DNA of 64,000 nucleotides from Ignavibacteriota bacterium (GTDB lineage: Bacteria > Bacteroidota > Ignavibacteria > UBA10030 > UBA6906). Numbering within the stretch: position 1 is the stretch's first letter; every line of letters starts with the position of its first letter. The notes below the pieces were generated by a model that saw only the letters and a list, made by a program, of their open reading frames with translations, had not been told where the DNA came from and did not search any database. This document shows, piece by piece, positions 30,993 through 50,313 of this stretch. The translations under genes and the position numbers were made by a program. The stretch lies in the NCBI GenBank assembly GCA_963801355.1, contig CAWDEM010000008.1, forward strand, positions 1,568,001 to 1,632,000, given 5' to 3'.

Positions 30993-31004
30993 TCCAGTGA
31001 CGTT

Positions 31005-31033: not shown

Positions 31034-31071
31034 AAATACCCGTGCGCACAGAGGACACCGGGGATCTTCCG

Positions 31072-32157: not shown

Positions 32158-32188
32158 CGTGTTCTCCGGAGAAATAGTATTTGTATTC

Positions 32189-32244
32189 GGCACGGGGCAC
32201 CGGGCACGGGGCACCGGGTATGGGGCGCCAGGCTCGAGGTTGCC
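32189..32244. repeat. Eight degenerate tandem heptamers (GGnnnnn) between kduI and kdgK
   Basis: GGCACGG GGCACCG GGCACGG GGCACCG GGTATGG GGCGCCA GGCTCGA GGTTGCC. Confidence 0.8.
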
Positions 32245-32252
32245 ACGTGTCA

Positions 32253-33086: not shown

Positions 33087-33140
33087 GATAGGTGTTCCTC
33101 CTGTATGATCGAGTAATCGTCTGAACAGAAAACGAACCTG

Positions 33141-34310
33141 CTACTCCGTTACCACGGTTTCCACCTTTACCGGCTCGCGCATGCGAAGCGACCAGTGTGC
33201 GAGCAGCGCTTTCCAGTCTTCGACTGAATTGAAGTCCCCGCTGCGTGTCCAGCCTGCCCCGGCAAAGTATTTCACGGGTACGCCCTGCCGCACCTGTGCG
33301 GTGAGCAGGTATTGATCCTTTTCTTCAGTCATGCCCAGAAAGCCTTCCCTGGAAAGCACGACACCGGTTCCGAGCTCCCCGTTCACGGGATCGTCGTTCA
33401 CCGCGCCCCAGAGTGCGAGCCAGCACGCCGCACTGTCATACGCTACTGATGTATTTTTCCTCTTCACGAGACCGGCGACAAACCGCAAGGAGTCGTCATT
33501 CCCGATGCCGGTGAAGACAGTTCTGATAGTGTTCAGATTATGACCGGCGTCCACGGAGTACGTCTTCACTTCTTTGTAAGGTGTGCCGTTGATCATCCCC
33601 TTTTCGTAGGTGACCGTAAACATTGCCCGCACGGGTCCGGTTGCCAGGATCTGCTGGCTCGTAAAGACGCCCGGTTGATGCAGCGTCCGGCCCCGGGCAA
33701 TGGTGGAACCGCCGGCACCCAGCGTCCGGCCCACGCTGAAGAAATCAGCTCCTTCGCCGTGGTCTTCATGGTACGTGTCTTTCTTGCTCTCGGCGCTGGC
33801 CTTGTACCATTTGTCCACGATGAGTGAACGCACCCGTTTCACCCAGACATCCACACCGTTGTCGACGTCCGCTGCAAGCGCCGGACCGTAAATTCTAAAC
33901 GCGATTCTGTCGCTTTCCCATGCGACATCTTCTCTCGGGAGCTCAAAGCGGGCATCGACGAGCGAAGGAAACTCCTGCCGTCCTGCCACCGGGCGGATGT
34001 GCAATACCCTCCGGGCGTGTGGCCGGAGGTCCACCTGAAACAGGAGCACGTCGGGAACACCATTGCCGTCACTGTCCAGGAGCTGGCTGGGAAGCTGTTC
34101 CTTCTGATGGAAGACCGCAACGTTCGACGGTGTGAGCCGGGGAAGCTGCGTGACCAGTTGCTGCCAGGGAAGTTCGATGGTTTCCGACCGGCGTTCGCAT
34201 GCCGACGGATTTGTCACGGTGACGCGGAGCGCGGGGGCGCCGCTGGCACTGCATTGCAGCAGGATGACGAATATACCGGACCACCACTTCAGAGTGTGCC
34301 GCATGTTCAC
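33141..34310 (-). CDS. DUF4861 family exported protein
   Basis: Signal peptide; DVAWESDRIAFRIYG, DVWVKR, YHEDHGEGADFFSVGRTLGAGG and YFAGAGW. Confidence 0.85.
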   Translation of the reverse strand: MNMRHTLKWWSGIFVILLQCSASGAPALRVTVTNPSACERRSETIELPWQQLVTQLPRLTPSNVAVFHQKEQLPSQLLDSDGNGVPDVLLFQVDLRPHARRVLHIRPVAGRQEFPSLVDARFELPREDVAWESDRIAFRIYGPALAADVDNGVDVWVKRVRSLIVDKWYKASAESKKDTYHEDHGEGADFFSVGRTLGAGGSTIARGRTLHQPGVFTSQQILATGPVRAMFTVTYEKGMINGTPYKEVKTYSVDAGHNLNTIRTVFTGIGNDDSLRFVAGLVKRKNTSVAYDSAACWLALWGAVNDDPVNGELGTGVVLSREGFLGMTEEKDQYLLTAQVRQGVPVKYFAGAGWTRSGDFNSVEDWKALLAHWSLRMREPVKVETVVTE

Positions 34311-34379
34311 CTCATGAAATCCCAGAAATCGTTGTGTGCGGGCAACCCCGCATTTCTTCCTTCCCCTCTGTGACGCCTC

Positions 34380-36146
34380 TCACTTGACACGAAGAATTTT
34401 CCGGGACGTCACACTCCCGTCGGTGGCGAGCCGCGAGACATACATCCCGCTCGAGAGGCTTGAACCATCGAAGAAGACGGCATAGGAGCCTGCCGATTTC
34501 TCCTCGTTCACCAGCGTCTCTACCTCCCGGCCGAGCAGGTCGTACACGCAGAGCCGCACCCACATATTACCTATTGCCTCGTGCCCACTGCCTTTTCCCG
34601 GTACTGTATACCCTATGATCGTCCCCGGGTTGAACGGATTCGGATACGCCGTCAGGAGTGGCCGTTGACCGGCCGCCGGCGCGTGCTGGTCTCCGCGGAT
34701 ACCGGTCGTGCCGCTTTGCGGGCCGACATCATCCGCGGTCAGGGGAGCGAACAGGACCGGGTCGGTGCTTGCTTCGTCGGCCCCGACATCGCGCAGGGAA
34801 TCGCGCTTCTGCCCGTCGATATCCCCCGTTACCCACGGGTATGACCCCGCGGCGGCGTCGATAATCGGACTGCCGAGAAGGGGGCGGCGCAGGCCGTCGG
34901 GTGCCGCCGAGCCAAGCGAGGGGTTCGTCACGGTGATCCCCGGCCCGCCGGAGATGCCGAGCGTCGCACCGAATGCAATATTGCCCTCCCATGTGATGTT
35001 GACGGGTACATCGGTGTAGCGCACAAGAGGTCCGGCGGAACTCACGATGAGATTGTTTGCCAGCACACAATCGACCGGAGGGAGGATGTTGTCCGAGTCC
35101 TTGCCTGCACCGATATCCATGCTGGACGTATTGTCTGCCAGTGTATTAAATGCAATCGTGGCGCGTTTCACCTGATAATAACCGTTCAGGGGAGAATTCT
35201 GAATGCCATCCATCACAGAGATTGCAGCCCGGAGCCCCGTCCCTTTCGTGCCGCTTACGTAGTTGTTGACGATGGTGTGGTCTTCGCCGATGACGCGGAT
35301 GCCGCCCGTATTGGCAATCCCGTTGCCGAAGAAGAAATTTCCTTCGACCCGGCACCGGTTGCCGTGCCGCAGGGTCAATGTCCCCACACAGCTGCGGAAT
35401 GTGTTGTTGCGATAGATATTGCCGCACGACTTGTTCGAGATGATTTCGATCTCGCCGTTGCATTCTTCAAACAGGTTCTGCTCTACGATGGCGAAAGAAT
35501 CGTACATCGACCAGTCGGACGTGCCGATGCGGATGGTTTCCCCGCCGTTGACACCCAGATCAGGCCGCCGCCCGAAGGAGTTGTGGTCGATGCGATGGTA
35601 ATTCGGAACGGCGGAGAGCCAGACGACCAGCGTTGCCCCTGCGTTGTTCTTGCCTTTCAGCAGGCAGTGATCCACCCGGTTGTCATGTCCGTACAATGAA
35701 ACCCATTTGTATTCCGTCGTCGTGCTGTCGGGGTTGAAGTCGAGAATCGTGGTATTTGTCAGACGGCAGTGATGGCTTTCGACGGAAGGCGATCCTCCCC
35801 GGAAATCAACCACACCCCCTGACGGGCAATAGCCCCGGGTGAAGGTCAAACCGTCGACGACAAGATAACTGCCGGCGATCTGGAGATTGGACGCACCGGT
35901 GATGGTGACGCTGTTTGCCGATGGTGCGCGCAACAGAATCGGTCCATCTGCCGATCCGTTTCCCTGGAACAGGATGCGGACATTGTTCCAGATACCCGCC
36001 GACATCGTCAGCGTGTCTCCCGCCCGGGCGGAGAGCATGGCTGCGGAGATCTCTGCCGGAGAAGAGACGGGATAATCCTTTGCAGCGCAGGCCGGCACAA
36101 CGGCGAGAACGCACAGGATGGCGAAACAGGAACGGCGCATGGTCAT
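34380..36146 (-). CDS. Polysaccharide lyase family 6 (alginate lyase / chondroitinase B type) with T9SS C-terminal domain
   Basis: NGGETIRIGTS, CNGEIEIISNKS and LTLRHG beta-helix motifs; C-terminal YPNPFNP...VYDLLGREV...SSGMY CTD. Confidence 0.92.
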   Translation of the reverse strand: MTMRRSCFAILCVLAVVPACAAKDYPVSSPAEISAAMLSARAGDTLTMSAGIWNNVRILFQGNGSADGPILLRAPSANSVTITGASNLQIAGSYLVVDGLTFTRGYCPSGGVVDFRGGSPSVESHHCRLTNTTILDFNPDSTTTEYKWVSLYGHDNRVDHCLLKGKNNAGATLVVWLSAVPNYHRIDHNSFGRRPDLGVNGGETIRIGTSDWSMYDSFAIVEQNLFEECNGEIEIISNKSCGNIYRNNTFRSCVGTLTLRHGNRCRVEGNFFFGNGIANTGGIRVIGEDHTIVNNYVSGTKGTGLRAAISVMDGIQNSPLNGYYQVKRATIAFNTLADNTSSMDIGAGKDSDNILPPVDCVLANNLIVSSAGPLVRYTDVPVNITWEGNIAFGATLGISGGPGITVTNPSLGSAAPDGLRRPLLGSPIIDAAAGSYPWVTGDIDGQKRDSLRDVGADEASTDPVLFAPLTADDVGPQSGTTGIRGDQHAPAAGQRPLLTAYPNPFNPGTIIGYTVPGKGSGHEAIGNMWVRLCVYDLLGREVETLVNEEKSAGSYAVFFDGSSLSSGMYVSRLATDGSVTSRKILRVK

Positions 36147-36180
36147 ACTCACGGGCACCTCTTCATCGCACACGATGGAA

Positions 36181-36218
36181 CGGAGACGCCGATTCCCGCG
36201 CCGGGAGCGGCGTCTCCG
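36181..36218. other. Strong intergenic GC-rich hairpin (possible terminator or mRNA stabiliser)
   Basis: CGGAGACGCCG (36181-36191) pairs perfectly with CGGCGTCTCCG (36208-36218), with further internal pairing; no U-tract. Confidence 0.6.
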
Positions 36219-36251
36219 TGTTCCGCAATTGAACAACCGGATCGAGAACAG

Positions 36252-37802
36252 CTACTTGAGCAACAACATCTGCCGGGTCCGGGTCAACGCACCCGCACGC
36301 ACCTGGTAGATGTACATGCCCGTTGACAGGGAGCGTGCGTCAAACGACACCCGGTAGGTGCCCGCCACCTGCTGCTCGTTGACGAGTGATGCCACTTCCT
36401 GCCCCAGCGTGTTGAATACCTGTACCGACACCATCTGCTCGGACGGCAGCGAGTATTCAATCGTGGTGGAGGGATTGAACGGATTCGGATAGTTTTGCTT
36501 CACGGCAAATGCCAGTGGAAGCTCGTTCACCCGCTCTACGGCCGCCGAGGGACTCTTCAGCGAGTTTTCTGTCGAACCTGTCTGGCGCGAGAGAGCCATA
36601 TACATGAATTGGCCGCTCTGCAGTATCTGCGGCGTTGCCGCGTCTGACTCGATGAGCCGCGGGAGACTGTCAAGGGCGGTGAGGTATGGTACGGTGGTCG
36701 GACCGACACCCGTCCATGTGGCTCTGGCGCTGTCTGCGATAGCGACACGCAGGTTGGTATTGCCTGCCGCCACACCGTCGTCCAGGCCATACGACACTGA
36801 GAACTTGTCAAACGTCATCGATGTTGCACCGGACGCGCCCTTGAGATAGGAGACTTTGAAATAGCGGACTTCGGAGACCTTGTCGATGGTCCCGGCAAAG
36901 GCGCTGCTCCCCGGGTTTGCATTCCCGGCAATTGCTTCGACCCGCGCATAATGCCCAGTCGCGATTCCAGACGTTGTGCACCGGACCCTGACGGGTCGAT
37001 ACCCCTTGGCATCGCCAATCTGGAACCACCGATCGGCGCTGCCGCTGTTGGTCATGCCGCGCCCCATGGCACCCAGGACATAGCTTGTGTCAGAGCCACC
37101 AATGACAATGGCAGCCGCAGTATAGAGTTGAACCAGAGCGTACGGGCCCGTTTCCACCAACCCCCGTTGGAACACCAGGTCGGGGTTCCCCGGTGGTTCG
37201 CTGCTGCTGCCCCCCGCCATCACCACATCGGACCCCAGGATGACGCGGCCGGTTCCGGACTTGTTGATGGTGAAGCCGTTGAATTCGTTGTTTGTAGTCG
37301 TGTAGGGCCCCATAGTGATGACGTTGTTCCCCGGGCCGACAGCCAGGAAATTCACCACTCCGAGCGTGCCGCCCGCGGATCCCTGGCGCATGTCAAAGTT
37401 GGATCCTGCATTGGTGAGGTTCCCGTACAGGTTGACTTTGTGTACGAGGGATCCGGTGACTGAGCGGCTTTGAACTTTGAAAATGCCATTAGCCTTGACT
37501 TCAAGATTTCCCATGACCGAGAGTGTGGTGGTGTCCACCTTCGAGAACAGAAACACTCCCGATACACCCTGCCCGACCGTGAGGCTATTCACGGTGGCAT
37601 CTTTGGCATCAAACGTCACCGTATCGCCGTCCACAATTGTCACGTTGTCGCTCGGACCGGGGACGACGCCACCCACCCACGTGCTATTCTCACTCCATTT
37701 CCCTTTGGCACCGGCGGAGGAAATGTCGGCAGCCACGGCAGACGCGACCATCGCGCCCGCCAAAAGGATGACAACGATAAGCAATCGTGCCGTGTTGCGC
37801 AT
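36252..37802 (-). CDS. T9SS type A CTD secreted protein of unknown function (G8-like N-terminus, beta-rich)
   Basis: GAGGAGG SD; signal peptide; GKWSENSTWVGGVVPGPSDNVTI; C-terminal QNYPNPFNPSTTIEY...STGMYIYQV...MLLLK. Confidence 0.85.
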   Translation of the reverse strand: MRNTARLLIVVILLAGAMVASAVAADISSAGAKGKWSENSTWVGGVVPGPSDNVTIVDGDTVTFDAKDATVNSLTVGQGVSGVFLFSKVDTTTLSVMGNLEVKANGIFKVQSRSVTGSLVHKVNLYGNLTNAGSNFDMRQGSAGGTLGVVNFLAVGPGNNVITMGPYTTTNNEFNGFTINKSGTGRVILGSDVVMAGGSSSEPPGNPDLVFQRGLVETGPYALVQLYTAAAIVIGGSDTSYVLGAMGRGMTNSGSADRWFQIGDAKGYRPVRVRCTTSGIATGHYARVEAIAGNANPGSSAFAGTIDKVSEVRYFKVSYLKGASGATSMTFDKFSVSYGLDDGVAAGNTNLRVAIADSARATWTGVGPTTVPYLTALDSLPRLIESDAATPQILQSGQFMYMALSRQTGSTENSLKSPSAAVERVNELPLAFAVKQNYPNPFNPSTTIEYSLPSEQMVSVQVFNTLGQEVASLVNEQQVAGTYRVSFDARSLSTGMYIYQVRAGALTRTRQMLLLK

Positions 37803-37847
37803 AGCAAACCCTCCTCAGTATTGAATGAAATACGAGACAGACGATAA

Positions 37848-39296
37848 CTAGAAATTCAGCGATGTTTCAAGGACCACGACATGATGAGACAACGTGTTCG
37901 TATTCACATTGGTTTCCCAGAGATCCTGGTATTTCAGATGCTGGTATTCGTACGCCAGGTCAACACCGATAGCTCCAAACCGCACGCCAACCCCGCCGGT
38001 GTATGCCGAGCCGCTCACCGGATCGCCGATCAACCCTGCATTCTCGCCGCCGAAGGACGCGACCTCCTCCCGGTAGCCCACGCGCAGGAGAAGCCATTCG
38101 GACGCCGCGTATTCCACCCCCGCCCGCAATGACTTGCTTCCCACCCACGGCCTGAACGTCGTGTCTGCGCCGGCATATTCTGCATCGCCGAGCTCGCGGA
38201 TGATGTAATCGACCCCGATGCTCAAGCGCGCGCTGGGCATCAACACGCCGCCGAACGAATAGTTCGCCGGCAGCTTCAGCTTGTCTGAACCGCTTTTCGT
38301 CACTGTCGTCGATGACCCCGTCGTATCATGGTCCAGGATTTGATCCCATGTGCGGGTCACCGTGGCGGGCAGCTGCACTGCGGCACCGATACTGAAATGC
38401 GTATCCCGGTAGAAGACTCCCAGGTTCGCAATGAGACCCGAGTATGTTGACGCAGTTCGTGACGAAACCCGGTTGAACACGGAGTCATTGCGCACGCGGT
38501 AGACGGCATCGAAGACGAGCCGGCCACGATCACGCCATGCCTCTGTGTCATCGGATGAACCGGTCAACACCGACACTCCCACACCCACACTCAAGTCGTC
38601 CAGCGGCTGTATGGCAACCGCCGGAGTGATGCCGTAGATGGCGCCTTTTCGGTGCACAGTAGTGGCATACCACCTCGCCACCAGTGTGTCGACCCCTTTC
38701 AGAACGGGCATAGGCGACGGGCGGTAGTCGCCGATGTTCGGCGACATATTATTGTTGTTCTGATAATAATAATCAAGATTTGTGGCTTCGGCAAATCCTA
38801 TTCCTGCGACACAGCGGACATCGCCGAACAACGTGAAGGGCAACGCGGCCGAGATCGTGGCCGGGCGGAGGATGGATCGCGTGGATGACCAGTTCGGTAC
38901 GAGATCGTCATAGGGCACCTGGAGTTCATCAGCCGGATTGACGACCACCGGGGGTTTTATCCCGCCCGTCAGATTCTCCATCAGGAGGCTCAGGTTGGGG
39001 TAGAACCGGTTCGGGATCCATTCCTGGGTCTGGTCGGCGGTACTGCTGTAGAGGGTTGCGCCGAGGCGCACCTCGGGCATCTGCAGCTGCATCAACGCGG
39101 CCGGATTGCTGAAGAGCGCGGTGGCGTCATTGGACAGCGCTATCGAGGTCCCACCCATTGCAACCGTTCGTGCGCTGCGAACGGAACTGTGTTCCATCCC
39201 CTGGAACGAGAGCGGATGATAGGTTCCCTGCGCCGCCACGAGAATGGGAAACACGAAGAGCAGTGCCCCGAGCGAGAGTGTACGTTGAGTCTTCAT
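37848..39296 (-). CDS. FadL/PorV-superfamily outer membrane beta-barrel
   Basis: Signal peptide then Gln; SARTVAMGGTSIALSNDATALFSNPAAL; amphipathic strands; terminal Phe. Confidence 0.8.
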   Translation of the reverse strand: MKTQRTLSLGALLFVFPILVAAQGTYHPLSFQGMEHSSVRSARTVAMGGTSIALSNDATALFSNPAALMQLQMPEVRLGATLYSSTADQTQEWIPNRFYPNLSLLMENLTGGIKPPVVVNPADELQVPYDDLVPNWSSTRSILRPATISAALPFTLFGDVRCVAGIGFAEATNLDYYYQNNNNMSPNIGDYRPSPMPVLKGVDTLVARWYATTVHRKGAIYGITPAVAIQPLDDLSVGVGVSVLTGSSDDTEAWRDRGRLVFDAVYRVRNDSVFNRVSSRTASTYSGLIANLGVFYRDTHFSIGAAVQLPATVTRTWDQILDHDTTGSSTTVTKSGSDKLKLPANYSFGGVLMPSARLSIGVDYIIRELGDAEYAGADTTFRPWVGSKSLRAGVEYAASEWLLLRVGYREEVASFGGENAGLIGDPVSGSAYTGGVGVRFGAIGVDLAYEYQHLKYQDLWETNVNTNTLSHHVVVLETSLNF

Positions 39297-40336
39297 GGCA
39301 TCAGCACTCCCAGACTGATGCGATGCACTCTGGCCAGATAGTCCCCCATCGAACCGTAGCTGTAATCGAAGGCAAGCGTGACGCCGCCGATTCCGGTCTT
39401 CACGCCGGCTCCCAGCGTCAGCCCGTCGTTGTCATAGTTCGACTTGTAGCCCGCACGGAATGCTACGACTTCCTGAAACGCGTACTCCATTCCGAAGTGC
39501 ATCTGCTGCGCGTAGTCGTTGGGTTGATGGATATCGTATGCCACCGTCACCCGGTTCTCTCCGGACGGCACGAAAAGCCCGTCGGGGCCCATGATATCGG
39601 CAGCGGCACCGAGCCGGAATGTGAGCGGTGCGGGGTAGTCCTCCTTCGCGAACCGCACCTGGGACCCGAAATTCTGCACCGCGGCGCCGATCCGGATGGA
39701 CCGGAAACCGGTGTTGTACGTGATCCCGAAATCGAACAGCCACACACTCGCATACGTCTTATACTCCTCCGATGCACCCGTCTCGGGGTTTGTCACCGAC
39801 AACGCGCCGCCGCTGTACAGTGATTCGCGGACATATTTCACGGTCAGTCCGGCCGAAAATGCCTCCGTCAACTGACGCGCAAAGGAGAGCCCGAACAGGT
39901 ATGTGCTGGGAGAGAAGGTGTTGCCCGTCAGGCCCGGATTGTACACCTGATTGCCGGCCGGGCCGACAAACTGGAGCTGATCCACGCGGGTTTCCTCGAT
40001 CGTTCCGAAATCGACATACTGGATCTGCATGCCGATCGTGCCGATATCTTCGATCGGCAACGCATAGGCCAGAGCGCCCTGCTTCGTATCGAACAGCCAG
40101 AGCGTCAGCGTGCTTACCACCTCGTGCCGGTTACCGACCGTCAACCCCGCGGGATTCCAGAACACCGCGTCGGCTCCCGCCGGGAGCGCGGCAAATGCTT
40201 CGCCCATGGCGGTCGCGCGCGCGGTCGGCATCACCTTCAGGAACTGCAGGGACGACGTGCCCACCTTCTGCGCGGGGGCCTCGCTGCCCACGACGAGGAG
40301 CAGCGCCACCATCAGTACACTCATCCATCGATGCAT
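39293..40336 (-). CDS. PorV/PorQ family outer membrane protein
   Basis: GAGGAGG SD; APA-QKVGTSSLQFLKVMPTARATAMGEA...AVFWNPAGL; C-terminal FDYSY...HRISLG. Confidence 0.85.
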   Translation of the reverse strand: MHRWMSVLMVALLLVVGSEAPAQKVGTSSLQFLKVMPTARATAMGEAFAALPAGADAVFWNPAGLTVGNRHEVVSTLTLWLFDTKQGALAYALPIEDIGTIGMQIQYVDFGTIEETRVDQLQFVGPAGNQVYNPGLTGNTFSPSTYLFGLSFARQLTEAFSAGLTVKYVRESLYSGGALSVTNPETGASEEYKTYASVWLFDFGITYNTGFRSIRIGAAVQNFGSQVRFAKEDYPAPLTFRLGAAADIMGPDGLFVPSGENRVTVAYDIHQPNDYAQQMHFGMEYAFQEVVAFRAGYKSNYDNDGLTLGAGVKTGIGGVTLAFDYSYGSMGDYLARVHRISLGVLMP

Positions 40337-40350
40337 GGTGTTGATCCTCC

Positions 40351-42564
40351 TCAGTGAATGATGACAAATCGACCGCTGGTACGGGTGCCATCCGGCGTTT
40401 CCACCACGTAGAAGTACACCCCCGATGCCATCACCTGATTGTTCCGTGTCACTTGCATATACTCCGTGGAATACAGTTCGTTGTCGTGCACAATTGTCTG
40501 AACGAGCTGCCCGCTGTACGAGATCACGCGGATGGTGCAATGTTTGGGAAGATTATAGAATCCGATCTTCCCTCCCGCATCGCCACCGGTGCTTGTTGTG
40601 CCGCTGAAGCCGGACCGCACCACAAACGGATTGGGCACCACGTGGACCGTCCCCAGCGTTTCCGTGCCGCCGATCTGCGTCTGATGCAGGGTGAGGTTGC
40701 TGCGGCCGCTCCGGTTCCCGGCTCCATCCACCGAAACCACGCTGTAATAGAACGACTCGCCCACACGCGTCCCCGCATCGACAACCTTGTAGACGCCGTT
40801 CTTGAAGTAACGCACATCGCCCACCCTGATGGAATCAGTCCGCGTCCAGGGTCCCAGCGGGTGGCTGGCCTTGCTGAGCTCGTAATGGTGCAGGGGTGAC
40901 AACAGGCGGGGAACGGAGAATGATTCCACCTGCGGCCCCCAGACAATTTCGTTCTCCGCACTGGATGTGTTGCTGACGGTAATCGCAGGCGCAGGCACGG
41001 TGATGGCGACCTTGTACACCCCGCGGTCGGGCGAACGCTCGGGCCAGTACTGAGACGTGTCGTAGTCCATCAAGGCCTGGCCGGTATACATCTCGATAGC
41101 GCGGTCGGCCACTTCACGCACGGTGACGGTGTTGGAATTGACATACTGGGGAAGCGGCGCGATGCTGAGATAGTTGCTCCCGTGTTCGTACGCATTGCCG
41201 TTTACGCCCCCGTAGGTGCGCGGCTGGTACCAGTTCGGCACCGGGTTGAATGCGTTGGAAGCGGGCGATGTGGGTTCGCCGCACAATTCTCCGCAACTCC
41301 CTCCCTCGTCTTTGAGCCCGGCCACCGACTCCTCAAGGCGCGCTGCGCCGTAGCCCACCACTTCGGCAACGGCAAAACGGATCTTCTCACCATGGTTCAG
41401 AATGTACGGGCCGAAGCCGAGGATGTGCCCCGTTCCGAATTTCTGCGAGTGACGCCAGTTGTAGCTCCCGCGGCCCACCCAGTCGGGTCCGAATGCGTTC
41501 ATGTCCCGGTAAGGGTTGTTCTTCCTCGTCTGTATCACATCCAGGTATGGTTGTATCTTGGGGATGGTGAAGTTGATGGTCTCCATCCGGTTGAGCCATG
41601 GTTGCTTGAGGTGCCCGTTTGCGTCCCACACTCTCACGGAGTCCGTTTCCGCCACATTGGCCAGCGTGTTCCCCTTCCGGGCGAGGTGCGTCGTGTCGTA
41701 GTACAACGGGAAAAATCCGGGTGCCTGGGGAGACAGGAGCCCGCCGCCGAATTTCTGGCTCGCAGTCCATTCTGCGAAATATTTCGCATCGGGCTTGCCG
41801 TCACGGTCGAGATTATAGTTCATCCAGCGGCGCCTGTCGAACCGTGGGAACTGGTCAAGGGAAGAGTAATCCGTGCCATCCCACCGGTTGAATTTCCGCT
41901 CATACCCGAACATTGACGGGCCGAACCCGTAGGCAAACGCGACGATCACGTCGGTGAGCGGGAGAAGATTCGCCGGCGTGCCGGCGTCGCCGTCAACATC
42001 ACCCGTCGCTTCGATTTCATATTCGTAAATGATGAAATCGTCGTAGTCGGGCAGACTCCAGGCCCGGCTTGTCCGGGTTACGGTAAGCCCGATATTGGTG
42101 CCCCACTGGGAGATGATGATTTCCTCGGCTTCATCCGGTTTGTAGGAGGGATTGAGTCCCCCGTCGGCGAGTACCGGAAAATTTTCAAACCGTTTCACCA
42201 TCACGGGGAAGGCAAACCTGCCCGCCACCGGTTCGTTGTTCGCCGCCCCGCAGTACGAGAATAACCGTGCGGAGGTGTCGCTCCGGCTCACCGAGAAATA
42301 GACACCTCCCCCGAACGAGTTGTACTGGCCGTTGTAGGACACCCCGTCCACGACGGCATCCGAAGGAGAAGGCCACTCGCAGCTCGGCACTCCCCGGGCG
42401 CTGCCGCCCGTGCCGCCGTCATAGGCGCGCCCGATTTCCCCCGTGTTGAAAATCGTCTCCCGCAGCATGCCCCTGCGGTGAACAGCAAAGTCCCGCAACT
42501 GGGCCTCCGCTTCACCGGCAAGGATCAGGCAGGCAAGAAGACTCAGGACAAGTGTTGTTCTCAT
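40351..42564 (-). CDS. Secreted protein with Fn3-like domain and variant T9SS CTD, TBDT-associated
   Basis: SPI signal AEA-Q with no lipobox at the cleavage site; YYSVVSVD Fn3-like strand; CTD VVPNPF...FYNLPKHCTIRVISYSGQLV...ASGVYFYVV...GRFVIIH. Confidence 0.8.
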   Translation of the reverse strand: MRTTLVLSLLACLILAGEAEAQLRDFAVHRRGMLRETIFNTGEIGRAYDGGTGGSARGVPSCEWPSPSDAVVDGVSYNGQYNSFGGGVYFSVSRSDTSARLFSYCGAANNEPVAGRFAFPVMVKRFENFPVLADGGLNPSYKPDEAEEIIISQWGTNIGLTVTRTSRAWSLPDYDDFIIYEYEIEATGDVDGDAGTPANLLPLTDVIVAFAYGFGPSMFGYERKFNRWDGTDYSSLDQFPRFDRRRWMNYNLDRDGKPDAKYFAEWTASQKFGGGLLSPQAPGFFPLYYDTTHLARKGNTLANVAETDSVRVWDANGHLKQPWLNRMETINFTIPKIQPYLDVIQTRKNNPYRDMNAFGPDWVGRGSYNWRHSQKFGTGHILGFGPYILNHGEKIRFAVAEVVGYGAARLEESVAGLKDEGGSCGELCGEPTSPASNAFNPVPNWYQPRTYGGVNGNAYEHGSNYLSIAPLPQYVNSNTVTVREVADRAIEMYTGQALMDYDTSQYWPERSPDRGVYKVAITVPAPAITVSNTSSAENEIVWGPQVESFSVPRLLSPLHHYELSKASHPLGPWTRTDSIRVGDVRYFKNGVYKVVDAGTRVGESFYYSVVSVDGAGNRSGRSNLTLHQTQIGGTETLGTVHVVPNPFVVRSGFSGTTSTGGDAGGKIGFYNLPKHCTIRVISYSGQLVQTIVHDNELYSTEYMQVTRNNQVMASGVYFYVVETPDGTRTSGRFVIIH

Positions 42565-42586
42565 GGTACCTGCTCTCCACCATCAA

Positions 42587-45415
42587 CTAAAAGTTCACGA
42601 TGAGGCCGAAATAGATGGAACGCGGCTCGTTGGAATACAGACTGAACGTCTGATCCACCAGGAACGGCGTGAAGTCGTCAAAGTACTGCAGCGTCTCCCG
42701 GGCCGTCTCGTACTTGCGAACGTTCCGGTTGATGTATGAGCTGCCTGTGGCCGAAGTACTCGTCAGGAACACCCTGTTGTAGGAATAGATCTTCTGTTCA
42801 AAGAGATTGAACACCTCCGCGTACAGGCTCAGGTCCACGCCAAGGACATGGCGGAATTTCTTGCTGAGCTTCAGGTTCGTGTTGTATTCCGTCGGTGTGC
42901 GTTTGTTGTTGATGACCCCGAGCCCCTCTTCATCAAACGTGTAGGGCCGGCCGCTCCGGATCGTAGATGTGACGGCAAGGGTAAGATCATCCAGCACTGT
43001 ACTTTCGAAAGACCAGAGTCCCGCTTCGCCCCCGAAATTCATCGTGATGTTTGCCACGAGGTTGTGCGTGCGGTCGAAGTCCAGGGTGATATCCTTCGGC
43101 GTCGGCAGCTCAACCTGGCCGGTTTCGTGGAACGTCGGGGATGCATTGAAGGACGTGCTGCTCTTCCCCGTCGCAACGGAGTAGCTGTAGTTGACGGTGC
43201 CCATCACCCAGCCGCGACGCTTCGCGAGGGAGAGACGGAACCCGCGGATATCCGCATAATCGCGGTTCACGAACGTACTGTACTGTGTCTGCTGGATATC
43301 GTAGAAAAACGCCCGTTCCACAAGATTTTTGACATCCTTGTAATAGCCTGAAACGTCGAGCGTGAATCCTTCGCCCAGTCCCTGCGTCACACCCACGTCA
43401 TAGCTGTTAGTCTCCTGGGCCTCCAGCCGTGGGTTCCCGATCTGCATCCTCGCGAAACCAACCCGCGGCAGCTGGCTGGAAATCGTGTACTGGAATGAGG
43501 GCCGTTGCACAAACGAACCGTAGTTCAGATGGAAGACGGTCGACACAGACACCGGGAAAGAGATGCCGATGCGTGGCTGGAGCTTTCCCAGCGTGGGCGT
43601 TTTTGCCTTCGCTGCGCGCTCGCGGTCATAGACGATCGTCGAATCGTTGACCATCAAACGGAACGGCGAATAGGGATCCGCATAGTAGTCGGTGTTCTGG
43701 TTCCAGAGATCGAAACGGAGGCCGATGTTGCCGATCATCCCTTCGAACTCCATCTTGTCCTGTACGAACAGACCCAGCTCGAACGGCTGCGCGGAATACT
43801 GTTCGTAGCGCTCACCCCCCGTGGAAGAGAGGTTGGTGCGATTGTCCACGTCGATGGTGTAGGAGTTCAATTGCAGACCGGCAAGCAACAGGTGGGAGGG
43901 AGTCACCTGGCTGGTCAGTGATCCGTCCAGAGACAGTGTACGTGTCTTTTCCGAACGGAAGTCGTTGTCGAATCCCCCCACCACAAACTTGTCGGGCGTG
44001 TTGCCATACGGGTACATCATCAGCTTCGACCAGTCACCCACCCAGCCGCCCGGATCGATGATCGGTGAGCCGTCGCGGTAGTCGGTTGCGAGCCGGTTGA
44101 CCTTCACTTCGTAGAATGTGCTGGGACTCAGGGCGTGGACAAAGCGGACACCGAGCTGCACGGTCTTGTCGTCGCTTGCGCTCAGACCTATGGCGCGATC
44201 CCAGATCCAGTTGTAGAAGCCGGTGGTGCTGAGGGAGCGGAGAAGATTCTCCCGTTTGTTGGCATAGGCGCCGCTGAGACGCAACGACATCCCTTCCCCG
44301 ACATCAAATGCCAGATTGCCCATGAACTGACGCTTCTGGTCGGGTTCGGGTGTCGGCAGGAACAGCCATTCGCTCTCCGTATGTGCCGCAAGAAACAGGC
44401 GCGTGACATCTGAGAGCGGCCCGCCGACATTGAAGTCCGTTGAGTAGTCCCACGTGTTGTTGTACGTACGACCGATGTCGCGGCGGCCCTGCGAGCGCCA
44501 GAGGACATAGGCAATCTGGGACAGCGTGATGGTGTCTCTTCCGAAACGGTTGTCAAACCCGTTGCCGAATGAGCTGTAGTACCGGGTGCCGCTTGATCCC
44601 TCCGAGGAGATATCCGCGCCGAGCCATTTTTCGGGACTGTCCAATAGGGTCAGATACGGATTCGCGACGGGGTCGTACACGTTTGCACCGAAGTGCTTGT
44701 AGCCGGGAAGGCGGGTGCGGAACTCCGAGCGTCCTGCCCATCGGTCACGCCTCCCTTCTTTCATGGAGATGTTCACCACGCCGGATTGCGCATTGCCATA
44801 CTGGGCACCGAAGCCGCTGGTGATCACTTCCACTTCTTCGACGGCACTCATGATCGGTGCGAACGAACTGGCGTTGTAGAGGGGATTCACGATGCCCATG
44901 CCGGCCAGCGTATAGAGTTCCTCTCCTTCACGCCCGCCGCGGAAGTGACCATCCACGACATCGGACGAGAGTGACAACATGTCGGTGAGGTCGCGGATCC
45001 CCGGAGTGAGCAGCACTTCCTCGGCCCGGATGATGTCACTTGTGGAGGTTTTCTCTCGGGCGACGTCTGGACGTTCAGCCGTGATGATCACCTCCTGACC
45101 GACCACGGTCGTCTGCCCGAGACTGAAATTCACGCTGGTGGTACGGTTCACGTTGACGAGGACCCCCCGCTGGGTTACCGTTCCGTATCCGACCATGGAG
45201 GCCGAGAGATCGTAGACGCCGGGAGAGACATTCAGGATGAAATAATTCCCTTCAATGTCGGTCGCGGCACCCATCCTCGTGCCCTTCACTATGACGTTCA
45301 CTCCGGGGACCGGTTCCTTGGAGCCCGCGTCCCTCACGACGCCCGCGATTTTGCCGGCGTCCTGCGCCCACAGCGAAGAGGCGAAGAGCAAAAGACAGGC
45401 AAGCGCTCTCTTCAT
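42587..45415 (-). CDS. TonB-dependent transporter with N-terminal carboxypeptidase-regulatory-like domain (non-SusC type)
   Basis: GKIAGVVRDAGSKEPVPGVNVIVKGT; plug FRGGR...EEVEVITSGFGAQYGNAQSGVVNI; QPRIGISFPV, GNPRLEAQET and terminal PRSIYFGLIVNF. Confidence 0.93.
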   Translation of the reverse strand: MKRALACLLLFASSLWAQDAGKIAGVVRDAGSKEPVPGVNVIVKGTRMGAATDIEGNYFILNVSPGVYDLSASMVGYGTVTQRGVLVNVNRTTSVNFSLGQTTVVGQEVIITAERPDVAREKTSTSDIIRAEEVLLTPGIRDLTDMLSLSSDVVDGHFRGGREGEELYTLAGMGIVNPLYNASSFAPIMSAVEEVEVITSGFGAQYGNAQSGVVNISMKEGRRDRWAGRSEFRTRLPGYKHFGANVYDPVANPYLTLLDSPEKWLGADISSEGSSGTRYYSSFGNGFDNRFGRDTITLSQIAYVLWRSQGRRDIGRTYNNTWDYSTDFNVGGPLSDVTRLFLAAHTESEWLFLPTPEPDQKRQFMGNLAFDVGEGMSLRLSGAYANKRENLLRSLSTTGFYNWIWDRAIGLSASDDKTVQLGVRFVHALSPSTFYEVKVNRLATDYRDGSPIIDPGGWVGDWSKLMMYPYGNTPDKFVVGGFDNDFRSEKTRTLSLDGSLTSQVTPSHLLLAGLQLNSYTIDVDNRTNLSSTGGERYEQYSAQPFELGLFVQDKMEFEGMIGNIGLRFDLWNQNTDYYADPYSPFRLMVNDSTIVYDRERAAKAKTPTLGKLQPRIGISFPVSVSTVFHLNYGSFVQRPSFQYTISSQLPRVGFARMQIGNPRLEAQETNSYDVGVTQGLGEGFTLDVSGYYKDVKNLVERAFFYDIQQTQYSTFVNRDYADIRGFRLSLAKRRGWVMGTVNYSYSVATGKSSTSFNASPTFHETGQVELPTPKDITLDFDRTHNLVANITMNFGGEAGLWSFESTVLDDLTLAVTSTIRSGRPYTFDEEGLGVINNKRTPTEYNTNLKLSKKFRHVLGVDLSLYAEVFNLFEQKIYSYNRVFLTSTSATGSSYINRNVRKYETARETLQYFDDFTPFLVDQTFSLYSNEPRSIYFGLIVNF

Positions 45416-45475
45416 ACGGCAAACCCTTTCGCAAAAGGTAAAGATGATGCAACGAAGGAACTTCCGGGCACGCGT

Positions 45476-46789
45476 TTACGGCGTTGACGCTACCGGATGG
45501 AGGAGAATAGCATATTCCCTCGCGGCCTTCTCAGGAGCCAGCGTGCGTTCCGCACCGGCATACGTGCTGCCCCACTTCTGTACCGCCTGACGGATGAGAT
45601 CCCACAACAGTCCCGGAACAAACCCTCTGATTTCCTGCACTTCCCAGCGCTGTGTGCCGAGCGCGAACGGCAGCAGGTAGTCGAGCGCGCCACGGATGCT
45701 CCTCCCGTCCGCCGTGCGGTAGTTCCAGAGATCCACGCCGGCGCGTTCAGCCAGAGTTGCGAGCGTGAACATTCCGTCGGCGTTCATGCAGGAATACTGC
45801 CAAGAGCTGGTGCGCGCGAGCTCTTCCGGTTGTCTGCCGTCGGGCTCGATTTGACTCGCGATACGCCTGGTTGTTGCTTCCCCGGCAATTGTCCGGGCCA
45901 GCACTGTGTCGCGGACGAACAGGGCAAGGGCCACGGCCTGAACGTCGTACCAGGTGCCGTGGTTGTTTTTTGCTTTCATCTCATGCCGGCCGTTCTCGCT
46001 CTCCCGCAACCAGGAGAGATAGAGCCGGCACCATTGCGTCATCCCCTGATCGTCGGCGGCGCTCCAGGAAGGCGAACCGCGCAGGAGAATCACAGCATCC
46101 AGCACACTTGTTATTCCCCGCACATCGATGATCCCCGCGCCACGCCCCTCATTTCTCCCCGGAATTGCCTGCGCGAAATTCAGGTTCGGGTTCATCCTCG
46201 TATCGGGATCGAGAAACCACGTGCGCAACAATGCCGCCGCGTGCTCGGCGGATGCCGGCGTCCCCGCAATGAAGTATTCAAGTGAGAGAACCCGCACGGC
46301 ACGGACCAGGATGGCGAAATTGTCGTGATCGGGGAAGTCCCGGATTTCAGGGTTTGATTCCCCGTCCTTCCGTATGTACGGCTTGCTTTTGTCGCCCGAC
46401 GGGTCGGGCCACCAGTACCTGCCCATGCTCATGTAGTCGTGCCTGTCACCGCTCGGTGGCAATTGCCGCTTCTGCATCACGGATACCGGCTCGAGCTTCA
46501 TGGCTTTGCCGGCATCCGAGCGGAGTCGGGAGAACACGGCCCGGTATCCGGGTGCGTCTGCCGCATATGCCGCGCGGGCCTGCATGAGAGCCGCGGGATC
46601 CATGACCAGCGTTGCCGGCCCCGCTTGTAGCCCCGCCCGATGCTCAGCTCCTTGCTCGGCCTGCTGGTCGGCCGTTTGGTACGCCTGCTGGTCACCCTGC
46701 TGTGCGGCCGTTTGGTACGCCTGCTGCTTAGCCGGCGCGGAAACGGCGGCGCACCACAGCACCATCATTGTCCAAAACAGACGGTTCAT
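45476..46789 (-). CDS. Alginate_lyase-fold lyase, PL38-like (alginate / glucuronan lyase)
   Basis: PPSGDRHDYMSMGRYWWPDP, PYIRKDGESNPE, NNHGTWYDVQ and QPEELART motifs. Start chosen 6 nt after GGAGG; alternative starts exist up to 46813. Confidence 0.85.
   Translation of the reverse strand: MNRLFWTMMVLWCAAVSAPAKQQAYQTAAQQGDQQAYQTADQQAEQGAEHRAGLQAGPATLVMDPAALMQARAAYAADAPGYRAVFSRLRSDAGKAMKLEPVSVMQKRQLPPSGDRHDYMSMGRYWWPDPSGDKSKPYIRKDGESNPEIRDFPDHDNFAILVRAVRVLSLEYFIAGTPASAEHAAALLRTWFLDPDTRMNPNLNFAQAIPGRNEGRGAGIIDVRGITSVLDAVILLRGSPSWSAADDQGMTQWCRLYLSWLRESENGRHEMKAKNNHGTWYDVQAVALALFVRDTVLARTIAGEATTRRIASQIEPDGRQPEELARTSSWQYSCMNADGMFTLATLAERAGVDLWNYRTADGRSIRGALDYLLPFALGTQRWEVQEIRGFVPGLLWDLIRQAVQKWGSTYAGAERTLAPEKAAREYAILLHPVASTP
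46669..46726. repeat. Coding repeat: 22-bp duplication at 36-bp spacing within a 12-bp periodic tract
   Basis: CGGCCGTTTGGTACGCCTGCTG at 46669-46690 and 46705-46726; encodes part of QQAYQTAAQQGDQQAYQTADQQAE. Confidence 0.85.
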
Positions 46790-46823
46790 CATCATCCTCC
46801 GGAGCAATGGCATCGCGCTGTTC

Positions 46824-47792
46824 TCAGGCCTGGATCAGGTGGACTGCAAAGCCGGCGAGGTCCATGTCAAGATACACCGCATGGGGCTTGCCGTTTTTCT
46901 CGAGCATTGTCTCGGGGAGGATCTTGAATCCCATCCGTTCAACGTACACAATCGCACGCTCGATGAAGTGCGTGCCGATGGCAAGATGCCCGTGCGTGCC
47001 CGGCGATGCGGCCTTCCGGAATTCCACCTGCGCGCCGGCAAAGAACGCCGCGGAGGTCTCACGCGACGCGACGTTGAGCAGGCCCCCGGTCAATCCCGCG
47101 AGTCGCGCAGCCTCCTCTGCGCTGCCGCTGTTGATCCCCACGTGTGCAACATGCAGTCCGAGCATCGTGCCGACCGCCTTTGCGGAGAGCGTCCGGATCT
47201 CCTCGAATTTCCCCGCGGCGATGAGATCCGATTTGACCATCCAGCTCCCGCCGCAGGCGTGCACGCGGGGGGATTTGAGATAGGAGAGCAGCAGCGACTC
47301 GTCGATGCCGCCCGTCGGGATGAACTTCATCGCCTTATAGGGGGCGCCGATGGCGTTGAGGTAGCTTAATCCGCCCATTGCTTCCGCCGGGAAGAATTTC
47401 ACGACCTCCAGCCCGAGTTCGATCGCCACTTCCACATCGCTCGGTGTGGCCACTCCCGGCGTGACCGGGATGCCGTGCGTAAGGCAGTACTCCACAACCT
47501 TGCGGTTGAGTCCGGGAGACACGATATACTTCGCACCACAGTCCACAGCGGTGGCCACCTGCTCGACCGTGAGCACCGTGCCCGCACCCATGAGCATGTC
47601 GGGAACGCCGGCGGAGATCTGCCGCATCGCGTCCCTGGCGGCATTTGTCCGGAAAGTGATTTCAATGCAGGGAATGCCCCCCTCCATCAATGCGCGGGCG
47701 AGGGGTACCGCATTGTTTGCGTCATCAATTGCGACGACAGGGACAATGCCGGTCAATCCGATTTTCTTGAGAATGGGGTCCACTGATGTCAT
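46824..47792 (-). CDS. eda: KHG/KDPG aldolase, long form with C-terminal extra domain
   Basis: IEITFRT, GAGTVL, VSPG, KFFPA, PTGGI and GGSW motifs, plus about 110 extra C-terminal residues. Confidence 0.93.
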   Translation of the reverse strand: MTSVDPILKKIGLTGIVPVVAIDDANNAVPLARALMEGGIPCIEITFRTNAARDAMRQISAGVPDMLMGAGTVLTVEQVATAVDCGAKYIVSPGLNRKVVEYCLTHGIPVTPGVATPSDVEVAIELGLEVVKFFPAEAMGGLSYLNAIGAPYKAMKFIPTGGIDESLLLSYLKSPRVHACGGSWMVKSDLIAAGKFEEIRTLSAKAVGTMLGLHVAHVGINSGSAEEAARLAGLTGGLLNVASRETSAAFFAGAQVEFRKAASPGTHGHLAIGTHFIERAIVYVERMGFKILPETMLEKNGKPHAVYLDMDLAGFAVHLIQA

Positions 47793-47815
47793 CCTTTACG
47801 ATTGATCCAGAAGAT

Positions 47816-48571
47816 TTACCGCGCCATCCAGCCGCCGTCAACGACCAGCACGTGCCCGTTGACGTAGTCCGAAGCCTTCGAAGCAAGAAAAATTGCCACA
47901 CCGCCCAGATCTTCGGGAATTCCCCACCGCCCCATGGGAATGCGCTCGGAGATTGCACGGGTACGTTCGGGATCCTTCCGGAGGTTTGCGGTGTTGTTCG
48001 TGACCATGTAGCCGGGAGCGATGGCATTGATATTCAGACCGTGCTGCCCCCACTCGTTTGCCAGCGCCTTCGTGATCTGTGCCACCGCACCCTTGCTTGC
48101 CGAGTACGACGGGACGTTGATCCCGCCACTGAAGCTGAGCAGCGATGCGACGTTGATGATTTTCCCCTGCTTCCGTTTCAGCATATCGCGCGCAACCGCC
48201 TGGCTGAGAAAGAAGACGGTCTTCGCATTGAGGGCCATCACCTCATCCCAGTCTTTTTCGGCAAAGTCGATGGCCGGCGTGCGGCGGATCGTTCCCGCGT
48301 TGTTCACCAGGATGTCAATCCTGCCGCATGCGGCAATCGCATCCGCGACCACCTTGCGGAGTTGCTCCATTGACGAAAGATCGGCTACCAGGGTGATGGA
48401 TTTCCGTCCCAGCCCCGCAATGGCTTTCGCCGTTTCATCCGATTCCACGCGGTCCACCAGCACCAGGTCGGCCCCTGCGGACGCCAGTCCCAGGGACATG
48501 CCCTGGCCCAGACCCGTGCTGGCTCCGGTCACCATGGCGACTTTACCCGTCAAGTCAAACAAGGTATTCAT
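47816..48571 (-). CDS. kduD: 2-dehydro-3-deoxy-D-gluconate 5-dehydrogenase
   Basis: TGASTGLGQG, NNAGTIRR, ASLLSFSGG, YSASK, ALANEW and VDGGWMAR motifs. Confidence 0.93.
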   Translation of the reverse strand: MNTLFDLTGKVAMVTGASTGLGQGMSLGLASAGADLVLVDRVESDETAKAIAGLGRKSITLVADLSSMEQLRKVVADAIAACGRIDILVNNAGTIRRTPAIDFAEKDWDEVMALNAKTVFFLSQAVARDMLKRKQGKIINVASLLSFSGGINVPSYSASKGAVAQITKALANEWGQHGLNINAIAPGYMVTNNTANLRKDPERTRAISERIPMGRWGIPEDLGGVAIFLASKASDYVNGHVLVVDGGWMAR

Positions 48572-48608
48572 GACACCTCCGGATATTGAGTAAGCCTCGG
48601 CTGTTTCA

Positions 48609-49898: not shown

Positions 49899-49901
49899 GG
49901 G

Positions 49902-50258: not shown

Positions 50259-50313
50259 GAACGTTCCTTCTCGTTGTCAGGATGCCATCGGTCGACGCCG
50301 GCCCCGCACCGTG

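Follow-up and report, generated by a model that had tools for sequence, protein, structure and literature searches.

We analyzed a 64,000-nucleotide window of the genome of an Ignavibacteriota bacterium (GenBank assembly GCA_963801355.1, contig CAWDEM010000008.1, positions 1,568,001 to 1,632,000), in which five co-oriented genes on the minus strand, spanning 36252-45415, make up a candidate nutrient-uptake module without SusD. In the direction of transcription, they encode a 942-aa TonB-dependent transporter (TBDT; 42587-45415), a secreted 737-aa protein that we call X737 (40351-42564), a 347-aa 14-strand barrel of the PorV/PorQ family (39293-40336), a 482-aa second barrel with the FadL fold (37848-39296), and a 516-aa G8-domain protein that ends in an ordinary type A C-terminal sorting domain (CTD) for a type IX secretion system (T9SS; 36252-37802). 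The X737 stop is separated from the start of the PorV-family barrel by a gap of 14 nt, and the start of the FadL-like barrel overlaps the stop of the PorV-family barrel by 4 nt. No SusD family was found among the 37 window proteins scanned. An initial annotation, made from the sequence alone, had described five linked, co-oriented genes in the middle of a polyuronate locus, with the 14-nt gap and an overlap of the two barrel genes, a type A CTD on the last protein, and no SusD-like lipoprotein; all of this was borne out, as the block is flanked by alginate-pathway genes and the G8 protein scored 39.8 bits on PF18962, 43.1 on TIGR04183, and 23.1 on the G8 model. Within 30800-50700, predicted sigma-70 promoters (10 sites versus 6.0 ± 2.3 in shuffled sequence) and terminators (16 versus 14.7 ± 4.8) stayed at the shuffle level and are therefore uninformative on the limits of the operon; the same scan placed no minus-strand terminator-like site in the intergenic gaps of the five-gene block.

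The TBDT consists of an N-terminal carboxypeptidase-regulatory-like domain (PF13620, 63.1 bits; PF13715, 62.3 bits), a divergent plug, and a barrel (PF00593, 69.6 bits over residues 382-871). Against the SusC/RagA model TIGR04056, it reached 47.4 bits, confined to residues 22-133 of the regulatory-like domain, and the TBDT of a paralogous module of the same genome (L098) reached 39.7 bits. As these 47.4 bits are far below the cut-off of 368, the transporter is not a SusC by NCBIfam, in agreement with the initial annotation. We also considered a plug-less transporter, as the Plug model PF07715 gave no match at E ≤ 0.01, yet this was ruled out by plug-like motifs visible in the translation and by partial NCBIfam matches, with residues 189-224 aligning to the TonB_dep_CU and PqqU models within their plug regions.

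X737 begins with a signal peptide for signal peptidase I (residues 1-21, cleavage after AEA; 42502-42564), as judged from the translation and the family consensus, with a helix at residues 2-18 of the structure model. A lipoprotein was considered on account of an LLAC motif at residues 9-12 and rejected, as the signal peptide would then have 11 residues and the family consensus shows no conservation of the cysteine. X737 matched no Pfam family at E ≤ 0.01 and no carbohydrate-active enzyme (CAZyme)-type family by sequence in Pfam, NCBIfam, or the PDB, and a PDB sequence search with its profile gave no match at E ≤ 1; by these searches, it scores neither as SusD nor as a known CAZyme. Among 8000 scored candidates, 716 homologues were found at E ≤ 0.001, named solely "hypothetical" or "T9SS type A sorting domain-containing". 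Upon searching 1.84 billion cluster representatives, the X737 profile matched 5300 at E ≤ 0.001, a number that fell to 2007 at 1e-10 and to 122 at 1e-30, with many of the matches aligning over just the C-terminal ~220 residues. Its Protein Atlas neighbours are unnamed clusters of Fidelibacterota, Zixibacteria, and Gemmatimonadota at 0.92-0.94, which we treat as leads only. Identity between Rhodothermales, Ignavibacteria, and other lineages amounts to 43-70%, which is more than SusD-like binders usually show.

The AlphaFold2 (AF2) model of X737 is mostly β-strand, with a mean predicted local distance difference test (pLDDT) of 86.8 and a predicted template modelling score (pTM) of 0.86, and divides the mature protein into a carbohydrate-type β-supersandwich (residues 22-520; 41005-42501), an FN3-like β-sandwich (residues ~525-630; 40675-40992; model strands at 529-628), and the CTD (residues 632-737; 40354-40671). 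In a wide VIA-align comparison, the supersandwich resembled galactose-mutarotase-like proteins and the N-domains of GH15, GH65, and GH94 enzymes. Its closest match was the N-terminal domain of dextran dextrinase (9ju0; Z 20.1, root-mean-square deviation (rmsd) 3.3, 264 residues aligned), and further matches were a glucoamylase (1lf6; Z 17.4), a glucodextranase (1ulv; Z 17.2), 4zle (Z 17.1), and GH94/GH65 phosphorylases. Lower scores came from alginate lyases, through their C-terminal domains (3a0o, Z 12.0; 9irq, Z 10.9), from galactose mutarotase-like proteins (Z 11-12), and from a GH174 fucanase (9k1g; Z 12.7). Foldseek matched residues ~525-630 to tandem FN3 domains with a probability of 1.00, and its search of X737 against the PDB returned GH N-domains and FN3 tandems at low TM-scores (at most 0.24 on the query).

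We examined the setting of X737 in 80 loci, kept from 295 X737 relatives that were found on scanning a single genome for each prokaryotic species. Counting as testable those loci whose contig extends far enough to show the neighbour, we found that the X737 homologue had a TBDT directly upstream in 76 of 76 and a PorV-family barrel directly downstream in 74 of 74, and that a FadL-like barrel came next after the latter in 66 of 66. An order kept in every testable one of the 80 loci is far beyond chance, and the conserved unit is the four genes TBDT, X737, PorV-family barrel, and FadL-like barrel. The conserved transporter-cargo-PorV triplet of the initial annotation is thus found strictly, and its module of five genes reduces to a core of four. 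The loci belong to Ignavibacteria, Rhodothermales (including Rubrivirga sp.), and unclassified "Bacteroidota" metagenome-assembled genomes. Of 301 genomes sampled evenly from the phylum of the window, 25, in several classes, carried the X737 family, with none in the three largest families sampled (0/63, 0/49, and 0/22). Cultivated carriers of the module include Rhodocaloribacter litoris and Rubrivirga sp. Four other carrier genomes contained 6, 10, 20, and 15 PorV-family matches, and as three of these four also contained SusD, the SusCD system and the TBDT-cargo-barrel system can coexist.

The genome of the window (4.8 Mb, 100% complete) gave no match to the SusD models PF07980 and PF14322, which were positive in the Bacteroides thetaiotaomicron control (PF12741 and PF12771 were not searched genome-wide). 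It encodes a full T9SS with SprA, PorU, PorV, PorZ, and PorQ, its best PorV candidate (241 bits) lying beside PorU and its PorQ (248 bits) elsewhere. After searching all open reading frames (ORFs) of this genome with profiles built from the 80 loci, we located 17 of its 21 PorV-family matches over the cut-off within TBDT-cargo-barrel modules; the remaining four include the housekeeping PorV beside PorU, and PorQ. The gene order is TBDT-cargo-barrel in 15 modules, with the barrel first in one and the cargo ~5 kb away in another. Among the 38 ORFs matching the TBDT profile, intact module TBDTs scored at least 272 and non-module ones at most 129, and the pieces of two split module TBDTs scored 52-198, some of them within the non-module range. 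The cargos are of varied types and measure 514-1229 aa, and none of the 15 scanned (X737 not among them) matched a Pfam family over its cut-off. A FadL-like barrel occurs only in the window module and in a close paralogue, which adjoins a GH28 gene. The neighbours of the other modules are mixed (α-amylase, LacI, RpiR, an SSF transporter, and GNATs, besides many unknowns), and several of these modules lack recognizable CAZyme neighbours, indicating that the general design is not limited to glycans. The initial annotation had described the module for this one locus; the ~17 modules with varied cargos show the design to be a genome-wide rule.

The co-phylogeny proposed as a check in the initial annotation was found in a set of 15 own-genome modules, from which two with split genes were left out. 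Trees of the PorV-family barrels and of the TBDTs share the clades {T6, window}, {T11,{T5,T14}}, and {T1,{T3,T7}}; all four clades starred in the PorV tree reappear in the TBDT tree, and the CTD tree yields the same groups. Pairwise distances correlated at 0.88 between PorV-family barrel and TBDT, 0.74 between PorV-family barrel and CTD, and 0.84 between TBDT and CTD, with none of 5000 label permutations reaching any of these values. This shows that modules are copied and diverge as wholes, with no exchange of parts between them.

A few further features of this genome stood out in the census. Modules T1, T3, and T7 (L093, L095, and L099), whose PorV-family barrels and TBDTs form a well-supported clade of their own, share a class of cargo of ~1070-1090 aa with a CTD subtype ending in QEQQILDRY. 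Three of the 17 modules contain split genes (C4:1068868-1072339, C4:1210685-1213724, C8:2714035-2717030, and C8:2720564-2721644): one module has a split cargo gene, two have a split TBDT gene, and one has a split PorV-family barrel gene. These splits may reflect frameshifts, decaying copies, or assembly errors. At C8:171415-174915, two adjacent PorV-family genes, one over and one below the cut-off, lie beside a CTD protein of 522 aa; the profile matches nearby include no TBDT, and this pairing falls outside both the module pattern and the housekeeping set. Five pairs outside the window (L108:2635-7479, L109:631-5556, L110:477-5584, L111:426-6207, and L112:950-5499) form a second kind of TBDT-partner arrangement, in which a SusC-like TBDT (CarbopepD_reg_2 plus Plug) is directly followed by a protein of 518-896 aa that has an ordinary type A CTD, with no PorV-family gene seen adjoining. 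Three of these partners measure ~590 aa, and two of the three share 29% identity. Apart from the 896-aa partner, which additionally matches Beta_helix, none of the five matches a further Pfam family over its cut-off. They may represent another class of T9SS-delivered partners, anchored by the usual route.

The CTD of X737 is a divergent relative of the type A domains, forming a PorZ-like subclass and not a separate fold. Scoring the C-terminus as the initial annotation had proposed, we obtained 26.2 bits over residues 670-735 on the type A model TIGR04183, a marginal pass of its cut-off of 23, and no match at E ≤ 0.01 to the type A model PF18962 (cut-off 27) or to the type B models TIGR04131 and PF13585 (CHU_C); the cargo of the paralogous module L098 reached 19.9 bits on PF13585, under the cut-off of 27. 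The PorZ model NF052228 gave 19.4 bits over residues 633-730, and the CTD superposed on the PorZ structure 5m11 with Z 11.0 (rmsd 3.2, 88 residues aligned, 23% identity; VIA-align). By eye, compared with the ordinary CTD of the G8 protein, it has an insertion of ~20 residues past the PNP[FY] motif, followed by F-x-N-L-P. An ordinary CTD protein in the same neighbourhood scored 44 bits on PF18962, and the ordinary CTD proteins of the genome score 25-48 bits. None of the 15 scanned module cargos (again excluding X737) matched PF18962 at E ≤ 0.01, and one passed the cut-off of TIGR04183. In 11 of the 15, the best NCBIfam match fell on the final ~100 residues of PorZ, and 12 matched PorZ at E ≤ 0.01; two matched the CTD end of PorU, which in one of them was the sole CTD match. 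Four own-genome modules bear the other CTD subtype, with the QEQQILDRY tail. When the CTD profile of the X737 family was run against the ORFs of the genome, 13 scored at least 54, all of them module cargos, and the remaining 119 scored at most 42; a PorV-family barrel directly adjoins 12 of the 13, and that of the 13th lies ~5 kb off in the same module. The "distinct CTD class" of the initial annotation holds as a recognizable subclass and fails as a fold of its own, and its "atypical CTD" stands as regards PF18962 and needs qualifying as regards TIGR04183, whose cut-off is reached, though marginally.

The barrel that follows X737 is a clear member of the PorV/PorQ family (NF033709, 211.2 bits over residues 27-344; cut-off 90), and stays below the equivalog cut-offs of both PorV (NF033710, 91.4 versus 250) and PorQ (NF033711, 86.5 versus 220). 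No PorP/SprF family was among the matches of either barrel at E ≤ 0.01 in the Pfam and NCBIfam libraries, which we take to contain PorP/SprF models. We modeled residues 22-347 of this barrel together with residues 520-737 of X737, each with an alignment of its own of 40 rows, in three runs and three controls, and obtained an ipSAE score of 0.93 in each run and of 0.00 in the best of the three controls. The predicted complex has 175-179 contacts, with at least 98% agreement across runs and a partner pLDDT of at least 90, and its interface consists mainly of the X737 CTD (641-737) with the conserved N-terminus (23-35) and loops of the barrel. In calibration, 58 of 80 solved complexes attained the score mark, as did 2 of 110 mismatched pairs, counts that are only approximate here because our own alignments served as input. 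The pairing of the cargo CTD with its neighbouring PorV-like barrel, which the initial annotation had suggested examining with multimer models, is thus predicted, and we consider it very probable that the X737 CTD binds this barrel.

The second barrel was modeled as a 14-strand FadL fold (pLDDT 86.4). Its best NCBIfam match is BamG (NF053685, 68.7 bits versus a cut-off of 250; 40.1 bits for the own-genome paralogue), and it scored 28.3 bits on FadL/OMPP1 (PF03349), slightly under the cut-off of 29.7. It superposed on FadL (1t16; Z 33.1, rmsd 3.5, 371 aligned), BamG (9hj3_F; Z 31.9), and PorV (6h3i_F; Z 27.6), and as all three are close, the fold leaves its role undecided; it may link the anchor with the TBDT or hold a further portion of X737. 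The G8 protein stands outside the conserved core, as an accessory in alginate-type loci: it was found, near full length, at a summed tblastn score of at least 340 bits in just 9 of the 80 loci (such as L002, L003, and L009). It may be an unrecognized alginate-active or alginate-binding surface protein.

The flanks of the five-gene block compose a complete alginate pathway, all of it on the minus strand. Directly upstream of the TBDT lies an alginate lyase (PF05426, 284.5 bits; 45476-46813), preceded by genes for 2-keto-3-deoxy-6-phosphogluconate aldolase (Eda), an SDR reductase, an MFS transporter, and a cupin (46824-50258), and by a GntR/FCD gene (53252-54034) that is likely the regulator of the locus; such a gene likewise borders the related alginate locus L012. 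Downstream lie a PL6-type lyase with a Chondroitinase_B domain (PF14592, 320 bits) and a type A CTD (TIGR04183, 28.8 bits; 34380-36236), presumably an extracellular depolymerase, and genes for a DUF4861/BT3233-like protein, KduI, and a PfkB sugar kinase (31072-34310; family scan, with 273 bits on NF058564 at a cut-off of 320). Among the 80 loci, PL6-like genes occur within 10 kb in 18 and PF05426-type lyases in four. We sampled seven loci without PL6-like matches, and six of these carry a PL17-like alginate lyase, GH28, GH88, UxaE, or pectate lyase: two have PL17-like alginate lyases with MFS, SDR, and GntR genes, three have GH28 and/or GH88 with UxaE or LacI, and one has a pectate lyase; the seventh has regulators only. 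These PL6, PL17-like, GH28/GH88, and pectate lyase neighbours tie the X737 subfamily to polyuronates.

Elsewhere in the window, a plus-strand ORF at 50635-52932 (765 aa), between the cupin gene and the GntR regulator, matched nothing in Pfam or NCBIfam and may be a gene of the locus or a chance ORF of GC-rich DNA. The plus-strand ORF at 29326-30888 was rejected as a gene, as it is the shadow of a minus-strand lysyl-tRNA synthetase (29356-30867), on which alone the Pfam matches fall. A DUF3160 protein (62501-63955, minus strand) carries a C-terminal FlgD_ig-like domain that is probably another CTD-type tail among the >100 CTD-like proteins of the genome, and a 725-aa Omp85/POTRA protein is encoded at 13149-15326 on the minus strand.

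The reading that we favour, if only by a modest degree, is that X737 is the T9SS-delivered and barrel-anchored capture partner of a uronate-oligosaccharide TBDT in a SusD-free uptake module. That X737 is secreted, retains its CTD, binds glycan, and contacts the TBDT is inferred. X737 would be exported by Sec and then by the T9SS, and its divergent, PorZ-like CTD would be recognized by the PorV/PorQ-family barrel encoded 14 nt downstream. This barrel would act as a private carrier at the translocon and afterwards as the surface anchor of X737 with its CTD uncleaved, in parallel to PorQ holding PorZ and to PorP/SprF holding type B cargos. Uronate oligosaccharides freed by the T9SS-secreted PL6 lyase would be captured by the β-supersandwich of X737 and passed on to the co-encoded TBDT, after which a periplasmic lyase, the MFS transporter, and KdgF/SDR/KdgK/Eda enzymes would complete the alginate pathway; the FadL-fold barrel would be a fixed fourth subunit of the uronate subfamily. 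As to the parts of this scheme, permanent anchoring of X737 by the PorV-family barrel is reasonably probable, as is, to a similar degree, the capture of substrate by X737 for the TBDT, and it is doubtful that X737 acts as a true SusD-like lid.

Several points weigh against the reading of X737 as an anchored capture partner. Its CTD scores over the TIGR04183 cut-off, which could mean cleavage and anchoring to anionic lipopolysaccharide (A-LPS), as in ordinary cargo. The complex model cannot separate a cognate barrel from any PorV-like barrel, and its docking score may lean on solved PorV-substrate complexes and so reflect likeness. Block duplication alone predicts co-diversification, which does not prove physical contact. 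The predicted supersandwich fold by itself shows no function, the cross-lineage identity of X737 would fit an enzyme, several own-genome modules have no recognizable CAZyme neighbours, and the reading does not account for the FadL-like barrel of the conserved unit. Given that the CTD reaches the type A cut-off in a genome that holds a complete PorU/PorV/PorZ/PorQ attachment set, the barrel might be an export-only carrier that is recycled after X737 has been cleaved by PorU and released or attached to A-LPS, the link with the TBDT being one of operon co-regulation. In the published model, as given in the available part of PMC10994853, cognate carriers recognize substrates at the translocon, and our complex model suits a transient contact no less than a lasting one. 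However, ~17 private carriers that co-diversify with their TBDTs (r 0.88) are hard to justify where a housekeeping PorV serves >100 other CTD proteins; moreover, the cargo CTDs find their closest likeness in PorZ and PorU, the pair for which CTD retention is reported, and the private barrels described in the accessible portion of PMC10202324 (PorP/SprF, PorQ) are anchors. We regard an export-only role of the barrel as improbable.

It is likewise unlikely that X737 is a surface enzyme, for example an unrecognized uronate lyase or hydrolase, possibly barrel-anchored, whose products the TBDT imports. Its fold matches are to supersandwich domains that mostly lack catalytic function, the best being the N-domains of GH15, GH65, and GH94, which are non-catalytic, although supersandwich folds can be catalytic, as in the more distantly matching galactose mutarotase-like proteins and the GH174 fucanase. 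The tie of the family to uronate loci and its high identity across classes, with Arg, Glu, Asp, Trp, and Tyr invariant at many positions, would suit catalysis; on the other hand, Pfam, NCBIfam, and PDB sequence searches gave no CAZyme family, the locus already holds the extracellular PL6 lyase with its CTD as well as other lyases, and the fixed slot after the TBDT gene, filled by many unrelated cargo types, better suits a partner. A last alternative, that both small barrels are BamG-like assembly factors for the TBDT or a TBDT-partner complex rather than carriers or anchors of X737, draws on the second barrel, whose best NCBIfam match is BamG and which aligns to BamG about as well as to FadL, and on the binding of a surface protein by BamG loops, as reported in the available part of PMC12578637. 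We hold it to be highly improbable, with a BamG score far under the cut-off, a first barrel that belongs clearly to the PorV/PorQ family (211 bits) and is predicted to dock the CTD, and a FadL-like barrel in only two of the ~17 own-genome modules.

The favoured arrangement, with X737 as anchored capture partner, combines SusCD-like bipartite uptake with the cognate carrier/anchor pairs of the T9SS. It resembles SusCD, the textbook account of glycan uptake in Bacteroidota, in that the gene directly after that of the TBDT encodes a surface partner, X737 occupying the position of susD, in the location of the pair within a CAZyme and pathway locus, in the multiplication of paralogous pairs per genome, and in the same N-terminal carboxypeptidase-regulatory-like domain of the TBDT. 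It differs in that the TBDT is not SusC by TIGR04056 and X737 is not SusD by sequence, in that X737 is modeled as mostly β-strand whereas SusD is α-helical, in the signal peptidase I signal and T9SS CTD that stand in place of a lipid anchor, and in the one or two extra barrels of the unit. A TBDT served by a surface-exposed capture protein also recalls TbpA/TbpB, which pair a TBDT with a surface lipoprotein receptor; there, however, the partners are lipoproteins delivered via other routes, with no T9SS, barrel anchor, or glycan context.

Further parallels lie within the T9SS itself. In the accessible part of a review (PMC10202324), PorZ and PorU are reported as the two T9SS proteins with retained CTDs, held by PorQ and PorV, and cognate PorV-like barrels are speculated to shield the CTD from cleavage. 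A PorV/PorQ-family barrel that holds a T9SS cargo via an uncleaved CTD is what we propose here, and the module cargo CTDs match the ends of PorZ or PorU best; in contrast, the module barrels are neither PorV nor PorQ equivalogs, both of which the genome has separately, the cargos are not PorZ or PorU, and the pairs are tied to TBDTs in ~17 copies. Type B cargos with PorP/SprF barrels (such as SprB-SprF) similarly have the cargo gene beside that of its own FadL-like carrier and anchor barrel, and their CTDs are thought to be uncleaved (available parts of PMC10202324 and PMC10994853); by cryo-electron microscopy, substrates were bound to the loops of the cognate carrier, which stays the anchor of type B cargos (PMC10994853, same part). 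The X737 CTD, however, is a type A relative, its barrel is of the PorV/PorQ family, and a link with TBDT uptake is foreign to the PorP/SprF system. In the part of PMC12578637 at hand, the BamG-BamH pair offers a FadL-fold barrel as a platform for a surface protein, which the second barrel resembles at the structural level (Z 31.9); here the score on the BamG model is low (68.7 versus 250), the BamA context is absent, and the partner is not a lipoprotein.

Upon searching the literature, with most subscription journals and supplements outside its reach, we found no description of a module of TBDT, CTD cargo, and PorV paralogue, in keeping with the initial annotation, which knew of no mechanistic account. 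According to the accessible part of PMC10576277, the CAZyme clusters of Ignavibacteriales seldom contain susCD and those of Kapabacteria lack it, and that part offers no alternative; PULDB lists susCD-based polysaccharide utilization loci (PULs) in some Ignavibacteriae (PMC5753385, available text). A table of the xylan locus of Rhodothermus marinus (PMC6987092, seen in part) gives a TBDT (Rmar_1070), a "hypothetical" with a Por sorting domain, a further "hypothetical", and a CTD protein; judged from these descriptions, Rmar_1070-1073 are probably the same module, unrecognized.

The module is a concrete candidate for an alternative to SusCD where susCD is scarce, and it joins TonB-dependent uptake with type IX secretion, a link that we did not find described in the literature covered. 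As it occurs in cultivated bacteria, it can be tested at the bench. If our reading is true, PUL predictors keyed to susCD would miss these loci, many unexplained PorV/PorQ paralogues (6 to 21 matches per genome in five genomes) would gain a function, and a large unnamed protein family (2007 cluster representatives at E ≤ 1e-10) would be defined, with a recognizable CTD subclass that can be tested as a "keep, do not cleave" signal. More generally, and as a tentative proposal only, the surface partners of nutrient TBDTs in Ignavibacteria, Rhodothermales, and related non-Bacteroidia might be delivered by the T9SS instead of as lipoproteins and held permanently by their own carrier-anchor barrels of the PorV/PorQ family, in a supercomplex of TBDT, barrel, and cargo, joined in the uronate subfamily by a second, FadL-fold barrel, that would replace SusCD. 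This would constitute a second, independent solution to outer-membrane "utilisomes" and a new physiological role of the T9SS carrier family, in which the "retained" CTD subclass would serve as an address label.

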